From IMG/VR virus record IMGVR_UViG_2703718794_000005: a stretch of DNA of 13,313 bases; one strand, 5' to 3'. The first letter of the stretch is position 1, and each line of letters begins with the position of its first letter. Positions 3,543 to 10,467 of this stretch are shown here, in pieces. The notes beneath the pieces were generated by a model. That model made no database searches and was not told where the DNA came from. It saw only the letters and a list, made by a program, of their open reading frames with translations. The position numbers and the translations under genes are program-made. The DNA comes from a virus. Taxonomy: Duplodnaviria > Heunggongvirae > Uroviricota > Caudoviricetes.

Positions 3543-3650
3543 ACCCCGCACTGTAGGAGCAGTAACGGGGCTTCTAACCAACAACGTAAACGAGGAGCCG
3601 TTATGGTTGCCGTAAATCATATACCACACCTTGTACACACACAAACTGCC
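3543..3650 (+). promoter_or_regulatory. Conserved structured leader R2b of the rightward operon
   Basis: Hairpin ccccg(3544-3548)..cgggg(3566-3570) with AGGAG in loop, tctaaccaa, SD gaggag + ATGGTT at 3603, tgtacacacacaaac; patchwise identical to R2a. Confidence 0.4.
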
Positions 3651-3675
3651 TTTGTGTGGCGTTTTCTGGCCCTGA

Positions 3676-4005
3676 GTGCCGGAGAATCTCAAATCATCCA
3701 CGTCACCGCCTGGACGGAACGCGAAGCGCGTAACCGTTGCCCGTCCGGTTGTGTTGCTGTATTTGCCGCCCGTATTCGTCAGGAGGTGCGCCATTATTAA
3801 TCTGTCACTTACTGACCTTAACCGCATTCAGTTTCGTGAGAAATTCACAGGGCAGCTACTGGTCAATGTGGATAAAGGTCGCGTGGTGTGTAATTACCAC
3901 TTACCAGATGAAGCAATTGTCGCCACAAGGGAATCATTACAGGAAATCACAAAACGTGCCGGAATGATTAACACGAATATTCAGGGGATGCTTTATGCAC
4001 AATAA
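3676..4005 (+). CDS. Hypothetical protein; start uncertain
   Basis: C-terminal two thirds (..LTDLNRIQFREKFTGQLLVNVDKGRVVCNYHLPDEAIVATRESLQEITKRAGM..) looks protein-like; N-terminal part from GTG 3676 is Pro/Arg-rich and overlaps alternative ORF 3603-3800 (65 aa, with SD and conserved ATGGTT start). A strong AGGAGG at 3780-3785 precedes an in-frame ATT (3793). Only one of the overlapping frames is likely translated. Confidence 0.4.
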   Translation: MPENLKSSTSPPGRNAKRVTVARPVVLLYLPPVFVRRCAIINLSLTDLNRIQFREKFTGQLLVNVDKGRVVCNYHLPDEAIVATRESLQEITKRAGMINTNIQGMLYAQ

Positions 4006-4255
4006 AACCACACCGGACGCAGCCGCCGAAGCCATCAAAACGCTGATGCACGCGCTGATTGATATTTCTGTTATCGCGGACAGGGCACATAAGCACGCCA
4101 CCAGCGAAACAGAATATACCGGGGCTTTCGTTCCTCACTCACTGGCTGTTATGCAATTTAGTGCTGATATGGCACTGAATGAGGCTAAAACCATCCTGAT
4201 TACTGATTGTGAAAATGGGGGGGGGTTATGCGTGATGATCGTTTTTATTCCCTGA
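3995..4255 (+). CDS. Hypothetical protein (86 aa)
   Basis: ATG overlaps previous stop (ATGCTTTATGCACAATAA); acidic/helical composition; C-terminus runs through a G9 tract (4217-4225) and overlaps next ORF by 28 nt. Confidence 0.5.
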   Translation: MHNKTTPDAAAEAIKTLMHALIDISVIADRAHKHATSETEYTGAFVPHSLAVMQFSADMALNEAKTILITDCENGGGLCVMIVFIP

Positions 4256-4449
4256 AACAAGAATTTTCCGGCGTTCCTGATGATGCGGCTGATGCGCTTT
4301 CGTCAATATCTGAAATTATGCGGGTGGCTTTTTTCTTTCTTTGCACTGATGAGCACAGAGATACAGGGCTAAATATTCTTGATATTGCCGCTAACTATGC
4401 CGATTTCGTGACAGAAGCTGTTTTAAGAAAAACAACGGACGGTAATTAA
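4228..4449 (+). CDS. Hypothetical protein (73 aa); may be fused to the preceding ORF by a frameshift at the G9 tract
   Basis: ATG 4228 directly after G9 run (acts as SD); begins MRDD like the next ORF (MRDI); frame is open from 4213. Confidence 0.5.
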   Translation: MRDDRFYSLKQEFSGVPDDAADALSSISEIMRVAFFFLCTDEHRDTGLNILDIAANYADFVTEAVLRKTTDGN

Positions 4450-4450
4450 T

Positions 4451-4684
4451 ATGCGTGATATTTACCACGAAACAACAGATCGCGTATTTCTTGCACTTTC
4501 TCACAGTGAAAATATGATGGAAATATTGCGCATATGGCTTGAAACACTTGGCGACAATGAACGCGACAAACAAAAATCAAGAATTGCCACGGCATTAATA
4601 ACGCTTCTTGAGCCTGTAATAAATGAGTTGCAGGAAATAGAGACATTGCACGACAGATATAACGAACAGCACACCGGAGAATAA
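4451..4684 (+). CDS. Hypothetical protein (77 aa)
   Basis: ATG 1 nt after previous stop; helical, charged composition; weak similarity to 4228-4449 product. Confidence 0.55.
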   Translation: MRDIYHETTDRVFLALSHSENMMEILRIWLETLGDNERDKQKSRIATALITLLEPVINELQEIETLHDRYNEQHTGE

Positions 4685-4689
4685 AAATA

Positions 4690-4989
4690 ATGAAACTTAA
4701 ATATTCTGGCTTAACTGCCAGTGGCAACACTCACCCTAAATTTACGCGCGGTGATATTTACCGCGACCAGTACGGCGGCACGGTAATGATTAAGGGCGTG
4801 GCGGGACGGTGCGTAACTTACCGCCGTGAAGGTTACGAATATGATTGCGTGATGCCTGTTTATCAGTTCCGGCGTGATTTTTCTCTGGTACAGACCGCGC
4901 CGCATAACGTGCCCACCAGCAACGCCAGGGCACGGGCAAACATCCAGAAGCTGAAAACCATGATTAACGGATTCAGGGGTAAAAAATGA
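4690..4989 (+). CDS. Hypothetical protein (99 aa), translationally coupled to the replication ATPase
   Basis: Stop overlaps start of next gene (ATGA at 4986-4989); protein-like composition. Confidence 0.6.
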   Translation: MKLKYSGLTASGNTHPKFTRGDIYRDQYGGTVMIKGVAGRCVTYRREGYEYDCVMPVYQFRRDFSLVQTAPHNVPTSNARARANIQKLKTMINGFRGKK

Positions 4990-6395
4990 AACTGGCACTG
5001 AACGTAAAACGATTACCGAAAGATAAATACACCGATGCGATTATTTTTGCGGGTATTGATGCTCACTCATTCGCAGAGCATTACATCATTGCACAGGCCA
5101 AAAAAGCAGGCGATCCAGTCCCTCCCGTTTATCTGGGGCGTTATCAGTTAAGCGAACTGGATAACCTCCAGATTGTTGATGATGGGCGATACAGGGCGAC
5201 GGTGATACGCGCCGGAAATATTGAAGAGCCGCAGCTGTTAACCATCGCCACGAAACTGGCGATCGCCGGAGTCCAGGAGGCGCGGCTACTTTCTGAAAAT
5301 TTCGAATTGCTGGAGGAATGGAGCGACCAGCTTCCACGGCTTAGGGAGGCATGGGAACGCGGGGAAAGCCTGGTCATGAAAAAAATTCCCCAGCGAAAAA
5401 CCACGCTACCGATGAGCGTTGGATCTACCGGATACGACACACAGCTTGATTACGTGGTAAAGGGGATTATTCCGGCATCGTCGCTTTGCAGCATATACGG
5501 GGCGAGCGGTTCCTATAAATCATTCCTTGCCGGATCGTGGGCGTGTCACGTTTCCACGGGCCGCCAGTGGGGAGGCCGCAGGGTGGCGCATGGCGCTGTT
5601 CTCTATGTGGTTGGTGAAGGCGGTATCGGCGTTCCGCGTCGTGTAAAAGCCTGGGAGGTTGTGCACGGTGAGCAGGTGAAAAATCTGTATCTGGTAAACC
5701 GTCCCATCTTTCCGGCGGTCCCGCTTGATGTTGATGAAATGGTTATCGCTGCCAGTCAGGTGGAGAGGGAAACGGGTAAACCTGTACGCATGATTATTCT
5801 GGATACGCTGGCGCGTTGCTTTGGTGGGAATGATGAAAATGATTCCCGTGATATGGGGGCGTTTATCCGTGGTTGTGACGAACTGAAACGGCGCACAGGG
5901 GCCACGGTGCTGGTGGTTCACCATTCCGGCAAGGATGAGACGAAAGGCGCGCGCGGTTCCAGTGCATTTCGTGCTTCGCTGGATGCTGAATACCGGATAC
6001 GCAGAGAGGACGCAGGCAGCGAAGCGCTGGTTATCTCATGCACCAAAATGAAGGACGCGGAGGAACTCAAAGAAGCCGCATATGACTTACGCGTGGTGGA
6101 GCTTTTTACCGACGCTGACGGGGAGTTAATCACGTCGCTGGTGGTGGTGGATAAGCCGCGCCCTCCCGTTGAACTGGAGCGCATCGAGGAGGCAGGGAAC
6201 AAGACGGAGAATCACGCCGCGCTATGGCAGTGCATCAGAACACGAACAGCACACGGGGAGGCGTGCACTATCGCCCTTCTCCGCGACGATATGAAAAAGC
6301 TGGGGTATGAGATGAAGCACTTCCGGCGCTGGCTGTACAAGCTGGAAAATGATGGCGTAATCGTTATTGATGGTGATGACGTGCGCCCGCTGTAA
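4986..6395 (+). CDS. Replication initiator / helicase-type RecA-fold ATPase (RepA/AAA_25-like)
   Basis: 469 aa; Walker A-like GASGSYKS, Walker B-like MIILDTLARC.GGNDEND, VLVVHHSGKD motif typical of RepA-like/DnaB-family ATPases; followed immediately by an iteron array. No primase (TOPRIM/zinc) motif noticed. Confidence 0.85.
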   Translation: MKLALNVKRLPKDKYTDAIIFAGIDAHSFAEHYIIAQAKKAGDPVPPVYLGRYQLSELDNLQIVDDGRYRATVIRAGNIEEPQLLTIATKLAIAGVQEARLLSENFELLEEWSDQLPRLREAWERGESLVMKKIPQRKTTLPMSVGSTGYDTQLDYVVKGIIPASSLCSIYGASGSYKSFLAGSWACHVSTGRQWGGRRVAHGAVLYVVGEGGIGVPRRVKAWEVVHGEQVKNLYLVNRPIFPAVPLDVDEMVIAASQVERETGKPVRMIILDTLARCFGGNDENDSRDMGAFIRGCDELKRRTGATVLVVHHSGKDETKGARGSSAFRASLDAEYRIRREDAGSEALVISCTKMKDAEELKEAAYDLRVVELFTDADGELITSLVVVDKPRPPVELERIEEAGNKTENHAALWQCIRTRTAHGEACTIALLRDDMKKLGYEMKHFRRWLYKLENDGVIVIDGDDVRPL

Positions 6396-9830: not shown

Positions 9831-9924
9831 GTGGTGGTTTTGTTGTTCGCTCTATCTCTATGAATAAAAAGGGAAAGATAAAAACAATACACCAACCTGA
9901 AACATTACTTAAGTGGGGATATTG

Positions 9925-10467
9925 ATGAAATCGCACCTGATGAACAAAAAAAACATGGCGCAAAGCTGCCGTGTAAGTGCGACAGCGTTCGACAAGTGGC
10001 GAGTGACTCCCGTTGAACGTAAAGGACGCGAGGCTTTTTACGATGTTGCCAGCGTGATAGACAATCGGGTAAGCAATGCAATTAACCAGGTTACAAACGA
10101 CAAAGGCGAGATTGATGATGATGAACTCTTACGAGTCAGGATCAGATTACTGACCGCCCAGGCGGAGGCGCAGGAACTTAAAAACGAGCGCGATCGCGGT
10201 GACGTAATTGATACAGAGTTTTGCATGTACGCGCTTTCAAAACTGGCGAGCCAGATTTCTTCAATCATGGACAGCCTACCGCTTACGATGCAAAGGAGCT
10301 TCCCACAGATTACCCCCGCCATGCTGGATGGGCTTAAAAGGGAAGTGGTTAAAGCCTGTAATGCCAGTGCCAGAGTTGCCGACAACCTTCCGCAGATACT
10401 GGCTGATTACTTGAAAGAAACTACCGGAAACGTACCGGAAAAGTTGCTACAGAAGAAACGTGAGTAA
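9925..10467 (+). CDS. Small terminase subunit, lambda Nu1-like (TerS; could act as a packaging-redirecting TerS homolog)
   Basis: Central block LTAQAEAQELKNERDRGDVIDTEFCMYALSKLASQISSIMDSLPLTMQRSFPQ..LKREVVKACN aligns with lambda Nu1 (LTRAQADAQELKNARDSAEVVETAFCTFVLSRIAGEIASILDGLPLSVQRRFPE..LKRDIIKAMN). ATG 9925 has SD gtgggga; ORF track starts at GTG 9913; ATG 9940 also possible. Confidence 0.85.
   Translation: MKSHLMNKKNMAQSCRVSATAFDKWRVTPVERKGREAFYDVASVIDNRVSNAINQVTNDKGEIDDDELLRVRIRLLTAQAEAQELKNERDRGDVIDTEFCMYALSKLASQISSIMDSLPLTMQRSFPQITPAMLDGLKREVVKACNASARVADNLPQILADYLKETTGNVPEKLLQKKRE

Follow-up and report, generated by a model that had tools for sequence, protein, structure and literature searches.

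Phage-inducible chromosomal islands (PICIs) of the EcCICFT073 type are found in Gram-negative bacteria and carry a putative capsid protein, c1499, as well as a head decoration protein, c1500 (Fillol-Salom et al. 2018, PMC6092414). We analyzed a stretch of DNA of 13,313 bp, which in its entirety is referred to as the window. The island that it contains shares with the EcCICFT073 type an integrase, AlpA, a replication module, genes similar to c1499 and c1500, a Nu1-type small-terminase-like gene, a size of about 11 kb and a dedicated chromosomal site. It differs in having a RepA/AAA_25 helicase, while some of its relatives have D5_N primases. In its early operon, a run of nine G (G9) lies at the junction of two small genes, here called ORF1 and ORF2. 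The literature that we searched on the tract, on DUF4222 and on these ORFs contained nothing relevant, and the PICI papers are silent on the tract and on ORF1 and ORF2.

Outside the PICI literature, the junction resembles several described systems. The homopolymeric-tract contingency loci of Neisseria, Haemophilus, Campylobacter and Bordetella likewise have poly-G runs of 7 to 13 within coding regions, in which single-G changes on otherwise identical backgrounds shift the reading frame. The run described here is also at least about 7 nt long, lies within ORF1 and 2 nt 5' of ORF2, and differs in length among close isolates. In contrast to these loci, however, a change in length would not truncate or silence a protein, but would convert two proteins into one tethered protein or back again, with a downstream half that has its own start and with the run itself as a predicted Shine-Dalgarno (SD) site. 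To our knowledge, E. coli has few hypermutable simple-repeat loci, and those of the poly-G contingency type are rare. A second resemblance is to coupled overlapping genes with ATGNNTGA or ATGA junctions, as seen in the ATGCGTGA overlap of the G8 state and in the G-rich putative SD site within the final ORF1 codons; other junctions of the operon and tract-less relatives are built in the same way. Here, the SD site appears to have grown into a homopolymer of 7 to 13 nt, giving an unstable junction and in-frame fusions. Finally, the programmed -1 frameshift sites of dnaX, IS elements and the phage tail assembly chaperones G/GT also combine a slippery heptamer with an overlapping -1 ORF, whereas here there is no stimulator and no fixed frame relation, and the downstream ORF carries initiation signals of its own. 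By analogy, the tract may be described as contingency-like in its mutational behavior and as a coupled-gene SD junction in its expression logic.

The island, its early operon and the G9 run

Positions 3900-4700 of the window, which span the tract, are 100% identical to E. coli 2013C-3181, and the window matches that genome (NZ_CP027312) with 99.94% identity over 10.7 kb. In NZ_CP027312, the element is located between roxA/pepT and phoQ/phoP. Annotation, Pfam and PHROGs together give an integrase, AlpA, a replication module, phage-morphogenesis homologues, a partial set of virion genes and a dedicated site, and by this content the window is identified as an EcCICFT073-type PICI between roxA and phoQ. 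Related DNA occurs in about 920-950 of 5,426 complete E. coli genomes, and a DNA search of the phage collection with the island returned no match. The island begins with a tyrosine integrase, an AlpA-type regulator and small leftward genes, among which is a YlcI/YnfO-family gene. The rightward operon then runs from an Icd-like gene through a 70-aa ORF, ORF1, ORF2, ORF3, DUF4222, the RepA/AAA_25 helicase and an 83-aa ORF to SSB, and is followed by homologues of a major capsid protein and a head-decoration protein, a 137-aa ORF and the Nu1-type small-terminase-like gene. The features around the junction are the following:

3793..4005, plus strand: upstream small ORF, 70 aa, phrog_340, WP_000609225.1, from the PGAP annotation of the 100%-identical stretch; overlaps the start of ORF1 by 11 nt
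3995..4255, plus strand: ORF1, 86 aa in the G9 state, ending ...DCENGGGLCVMIVFIP*; stop TGA at 4253-4255
4210..4212, plus strand: TGA that closes the ORF2 frame upstream; the frame is open from 4213
4217..4225, plus strand: G9 homopolymer, Gly codons at the ORF1 C-terminus; doubles as the predicted SD element of ORF2
4228..4449, plus strand: ORF2, 73 aa, starting MRDDRFYSLKQEF...; own ATG 2 nt 3' of the run; -1 frame relative to ORF1
4451..4684, plus strand: ORF3, 77 aa, phrog_2196, the next small gene
4690-4989, plus strand: DUF4222 gene, Pfam PF13973
4986-6395, plus strand: RepA-type helicase, Pfam PF13481; with the DUF4222 gene, the replication module that closes the tightly packed early operon

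The junctions of this operon are tight (overlaps of 8 and 11 nt, ATGA, or gaps of 1-5 nt), which suggests that its genes are translationally coupled. For the 70-aa ORF, the start chosen by PGAP, 3793, is ATT in the window and lies behind a very strong SD site, AGGAGGT (-14 kcal/mol), and its homologue in other islands begins with ATG (MHNLSISDLN...). This ORF may use non-canonical AUU initiation. Further along, L088 (5850-6122) and some other relatives have a PerC-family gene 3' of the helicase, where window-type islands have SSB.

Inspection of the sequence places nine consecutive G at 4217-4225, in agreement with the sequence-only reading made before this analysis, which had located the run in the 3' end of ORF1, just before the ATG of ORF2 at 4228. 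It is the sole run of at least 7 G or C across the 13,313 bp. Considering that at least one G9 or C9 arose in 17 of 200 shuffles that preserved the dinucleotides of the window, the mere presence of the run is not significant; it goes beyond chance because a pure run of G7 to G13 occupies the homologous position in dozens of diverged haplotypes. In the ORF1 frame of the G9 allele, the run is translated as Gly-Gly-Gly. Residues 1-77 of ORF1 make up a conserved helical-hairpin protein, and its last 9 residues (LCVMIVFIP, 4226-4252) are an out-of-frame tail set by the length of the tract. ORF2 had been read as lying in the -1 frame and open from 4213, and the TGA at 4210-4212 is indeed its boundary, so that ORF2 in the window allele cannot start before ATG 4228. 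Alleles with ATTGCTGAT in place of ATTACTGAT lack this TGA, and gene callers lengthen their ORF2 to 89 aa (P0139, 163 contigs). Another ATG, at 4215-4217, is formed by AAAATGGGG directly 5' of the run; it is in frame with ORF2 only in G8 and G11, adding MGGV. The true start of ORF2 may vary with the state of the tract.

In silico addition of one G gives a fusion of 151 aa (...DCENGGGVMRDDRF...), and removal of one G gives an ORF1 of 79 aa (...GGGYA*) with a TGA that overlaps the ORF2 start as ATGCGTGA. BLASTP of ORF1 against ORF2, as a test for tandem duplication, found no similarity. Two other candidates at this site were dismissed: a G-quadruplex, since one G run alone cannot make one, and a minus-strand ORF at 4135-4260 (41 aa, TTG start), which was taken to be a chance ORF.

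Tract length is polymorphic

For the window's allele, exact protein look-ups were counted as contigs in public assemblies, counts that are inflated by clonal oversampling (STEC surveillance), so that the frame frequencies do not reflect independent events:

G8: ORF1 of 79 aa (P0122), 123 contigs
G9: ORF1 of 86 aa (P0121), 220 contigs
G10: 151-aa fusion, exactly as predicted (P0140), 141 contigs
G11: ORF1 of 80 aa (P0128), 42 contigs
Any split state: ORF2 alone (P0136), 369 contigs

In other words, the fusion of about 150 aa that one extra G had been proposed to create exists in nature, and G7 and G13 create fusions as well. The fusion junctions read ENGG-VMRDD (G7), ENGGG-VMRDD (G10) and ENGGGG-VMRDD (G13), and DNA from NCBI draft assemblies and Logan assemblies bears out both G10 and G13. 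A protein search with the hypothetical G10 fusion found 488 E. coli proteins, many of which are single proteins of 150-155 aa. Five near-identical islands in complete genomes have G9 (n = 2) or G8 (n = 3), and the PGAP annotation of each shows two separate hypothetical proteins.

To relate these lengths to background divergence, the latter was measured over 2,784 bp (window 3603-6395) with the tract masked. One identical 2,784-bp haplotype occurs with G8 (L090), G9 (L001, L075), G10 (L060) and G11 (L093), a second with G8, G10 and G11, and a third with G10 and G11. The G9, G10 and G11 loci are 1-4 SNPs per 6.2 kb apart, and 1-2 SNPs over 4.1 kb from the G8 locus. L060 (G10) and L093 (G11) are separated by 1 SNP and the tract over 6,243 bp and have the same starting contig coordinate in two assemblies; they are therefore very probably one clone. 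Variation among G8, G9 and G10 in homologous islands, which the sequence-only reading had named as the check on its proposal, is thus present and extends from G7 to G13 overall. The idea of a length-variable site of the slipped-strand type holds up too, given that G8, G9, G10 and G11 sit on identical 2.8-kb haplotypes. Tract length is a possible fast-evolving marker within STEC clones.

A pattern scan of metagenome contigs and the five complete genomes found G7 10 times, G8 30 times, G9 14 times and G10 once, as well as three interrupted runs. The scanned tracts cover 42 distinct flanking haplotypes, in a DNA-pattern sample that is biased towards conserved junctions. A less biased sample was formed by complete genomes picked by overall similarity, together with the species representative of Shigella flexneri:

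G7: O157:H7 (two), 2013C-3252, 2013C-3513, NCTC9112
G8: ATCC 25922 (two), O55:H7, Shigella flexneri
G9: TUM1886, strain 042, E300082
G8T, in frame: PSS-15

In a spread sample of complete genomes, the locus was annotated as a single CDS in about 27 cases and as split in about 18. All three relative frames of ORF1 and ORF2 are common among homologues, which argues against strong selection on frame. When contigs of species-representative genomes were scanned with the DNA pattern, Shigella flexneri was the sole match, and the tract-bearing junction therefore appears to be confined to Escherichia/Shigella.

We considered whether the tract could really have one length, with the calls of G8 to G11 being homopolymer errors. 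Several of the family's complete genomes were assembled from long reads and are thus liable to indels in homopolymers, and such an error may have affected a second homopolymer of the island. This A8 run (9946-9953) falls early in the Nu1-type small-terminase-like gene (9913-10467), which is intact in the window (184 aa); NZ_CP027312 has A7 at this position and PGAP flags its gene as 'frameshifted', a difference that can be either a real polymorphism or a long-read error. For the G tract, however, G8, G9, G10 and G11 each occur on 42-220 contigs, and the draft assemblies carrying them are presumably mostly short-read. G13 is found in an NCBI assembly and in a Logan assembly, two independent assemblies of ATCC 25922 both have G8, and two O157:H7 strains both have G7. 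In the spread sample, 15 related rows of the O157:H7/O145 type share one of two aligned lengths, and all are annotated as a single CDS. O55:H7, the ancestral lineage of O157:H7, has G8, with one further SNP over 1,541 bp compared to O157:H7. Members of one clone repeatedly give the same length, which makes random sequencing error improbable, and we give very little credence to a tract of one fixed length. Single length calls, including the G9 of the window, could be off by one, but the polymorphism itself is real. The narrower suggestion that a sequencing or assembly error had split one gene in the window fares no better, as it also conflicts with the stand-alone halves and the shared ORF2 Met of distant relatives.

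Relatives and ancestry of the two ORFs

Among 1.84 billion representatives, searched exhaustively and without a profile, no more than 46 clusters proved to be related. The divergent ORF1-like proteins are stand-alone, measure 77-84 aa and end ...ADIQ/K... without a Gly run (P0170, P0173, P0184, P0186, P0188). The divergent ORF2-like proteins are stand-alone as well, with 75-77 aa and a first Met equivalent to ATG 4228 (query residue 79; P0171, P0172, P0190, P0196). Because the distant relatives are stand-alone halves and the ORF2 homologues share their starting Met, we reasoned that the two-gene layout is probably ancestral and the fusions derived. In tract-less islands, an ORF3-like gene lies directly 3' of ORF1. 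In one of these, L072, ORF1 ends ...IQGAHHA* and overlaps this ORF3-like gene as ATGCATGA, preceded by CAAGGGGCG, a GGGG SD site. In L110, ORF2 instead lies behind a 121-aa gene that is unrelated and overlaps it by 8 nt, with AGGGGGGTAAAC-ATG as a G6 SD site. Based on the stand-alone homologues and on the arrangements in L072 and L110, ORF1 and ORF2 can be regarded as independent modules, and the frame of G8 and G11 would match the ancestral coupled layout of the tract-less relatives. Other combinations also occur: three proteins of 224 aa (P0064, P0075, P0094) join an upstream ORF, which in P0064 is the 70-aa one, to ORF1-ORF2, and P0167 (167 aa) joins an orfU-like N-terminus straight to an ORF2 homologue. 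The small genes of the operon seem to have been repeatedly shuffled and fused.

All three forms are present in PHROGs, with ORF1 as phrog_5146, ORF2 as phrog_24341 and the full-length form as phrog_2512. Due to the variation in tract length, one gene is thereby filed as three phrog families and as one or two RefSeq 'hypothetical proteins'. Pfam has no family for ORF1, ORF2 or the fusion. Both halves are under purifying selection, with a dN/dS of about 0.22 (ORF1) and about 0.25 (ORF2), or of 0.22-0.24 when only split alleles are used. An AF2 model of the fusion, of moderate quality (pLDDT 66, pTM 0.42), has two helical hairpins (H9-37/H45-73 and H96-116/H119-147) linked by the low-confidence residues 76-94, which include the Gly run. 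A fusion that does no more than tether two small helical proteins, each autonomous, would be expected to look like this. A Foldseek search of the PDB with the model gave nothing below E = 2, with just generic helical hairpins and bundles.

These data bear on whether the single gene of 150 aa is the functional form, in which case the G8 and G9 alleles would be frameshift-inactivated pseudogenes of a dispensable accessory gene in decay. Fused single-CDS alleles do outnumber split ones among the complete genomes of the spread sample (about 27 of 45), a full-length PHROGs family exists, and the copy in Shigella flexneri (L102, 2770-2790) has an additional frameshift inside ORF2 (STGLMY*), suggesting decay of that copy. 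The distant relatives, however, are separate genes whose ORF2 homologues share a Met, and the G8 layout matches the ATGNNTGA coupling of tract-less islands. In addition, the low dN/dS holds for the split alleles, and by contig count the window's exact allele is split on 385 contigs versus fused on 141. We consider it improbable that the split alleles are broken genes, and caution that neither the fused nor the split form should be taken as an annotation error or a pseudogene.

Possible initiation, recoding and switching at the tract

For the 20 nt 5' of ATG 4228, the predicted pairing with the 3' end of 16S rRNA amounts to -12.7 kcal/mol. Predicted anti-SD pairing ranges from -11.6 to -12.7 kcal/mol for G7-G12 and is -5.9 kcal/mol for G4. 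Within the island, stronger sites are predicted only for the capsid gene and the 70-aa ORF, and GGGG(G) SD sites also precede alpA, ORF1, repA, the decoration gene and the 9306 ORF. The junction has the layout of a coupled pair, with ATG 4228 set against the stop at 4253-4255 in G9, the ATGCGTGA overlap in G8 and an anti-SD match upstream, and ORF2 is found as an independent gene with the same Met. This Met is kept in every fusion allele examined. What counts against the SD reading is the short gap of 2 nt between the run and the ATG, which leaves optimal SD spacing only for the 5' part of the run. From these features, we infer that the run probably functions as an SD element, that ORF2 is likely to be translated in split alleles, and that the fused and split forms may be equivalent.

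As ORF2 retains its ATG and a strong predicted SD site at every length, a change in tract length would act as a switch between fused and separate, rather than between on and off. The run had been proposed as a phase-variation site. The part of this proposal that stands is the change of length on near-identical backgrounds; at the level of sequence, the classical ON/OFF behavior of contingency loci is not found, since no length state removes an ORF and residues 1-77 of ORF1 are constant.

The G9 allele could in principle also make the fusion itself, by programmed -1 frameshifting on G GGG GGG or by RNA-polymerase slippage. Read in the frame of ORF1, the heptamer has the form X XXY YYZ, and no stop codon interrupts the -1 frame along the run. 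Homopolymers of at least 9 can provoke transcriptional slippage, which is mostly established for A/T runs. Among three hallmarks of programmed frameshifting, we found only the heptamer, and neither the stimulator nor a conserved frame relation. Folds of 80 and 121 nt gave no support for a downstream stimulatory structure, as the RNA folds no better than shuffles (4226-4305, z = +0.58; 4170-4290, z = +1.83). Programmed frameshift sites keep a fixed frame relation, whereas here it varies among homologues: G8 would need +1, G9 would need -1, and G7 and G10 would need none. Both results speak against the earlier suggestion that a -1 ribosomal slip yields the fusion, and recoding of either kind seems to us highly improbable.

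A further reading is that of an adaptive contingency locus, in which stochastic switching between tethered and separate forms, or an altered dosage of ORF2, changes the interaction with the helper phage or the host as a form of bet-hedging. In line with this, the run is pure at 56 of the 59 loci, which represent 42 diverged haplotypes, and in eight of the nine tract-bearing junctions from the less biased complete genomes and the Shigella flexneri representative. The range from G7 to G13 and the recurrent change on identical backgrounds resemble classical phase-variable loci, and fused and split states are both abundant in nature. On the other hand, nothing is switched off, as the ORF2 start and its predicted SD site are there in all states, and the distribution of frames has no obvious preference. 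Tethering is not required either, because the halves occur independently in other islands, and G7 is stable within large clones such as O157:H7. We hold an adaptive switch to be unlikely. If true, it would amount to bet-hedging by an E. coli PICI that is driven by a simple sequence repeat and works via fusion and fission instead of ON/OFF, diversifying the response to helper phages or the interference with them.

On balance, we lean towards an over-extended G-rich SD element of ORF2 in a coupled early operon, which is a hotspot of slipped-strand mispairing and whose lengths are near-neutral. Ordinary homopolymer instability, rather than sequencing error or programmed frameshifting, is the best reading of the variation. 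A G-rich SD site within the last ORF1 codons would have expanded into a homopolymer, in which slipped-strand mispairing would alter the number of G far faster than substitutions accrue around it; rapid gain and loss of G is to be expected because the run is a long homopolymer. The comparisons of identical haplotypes and the general mutability of homopolymers both point to this mechanism. With G8 or G11, the two genes are separate, and their stop and start overlap canonically as ATGCGTGA. With G9, as in the window, the two genes are likewise separate, and ORF1 has a 9-residue out-of-frame tail. With G7, G10 or G13, there is one protein of 150-152 aa, in which Gly2-4-Val tethers the two helical-hairpin halves. 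ORF2 would be initiated independently from its own ATG at every length, so both polypeptides are expected, either separate or tethered. Considering that ORF2 can be initiated in all states and that all frames are abundant, a tolerated near-neutral polymorphism is the simplest reading, and changes in length are presumably neutral. The persistence of a pure G run across haplotypes with a dS of 0.3-0.8 could instead reflect selection for mutability, and not for SD strength.

The locus represents a well-documented hypermutable simple repeat, with gene fusion and fission as its effect, in a widespread E. coli phage satellite; about 920 of 5,426 complete genomes, O157:H7 included, carry a member of the island family. 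It offers a convenient natural system for homopolymer instability and for the question of contingency switching in satellites. One genome, NZ_CP024289 (strain 2012C-4431), contains two related islands, L076 and L085, that carry one ORF1/ORF2 allele with G9 and G8, respectively, and that differ in their replication modules (D5_N primase versus RepA helicase).
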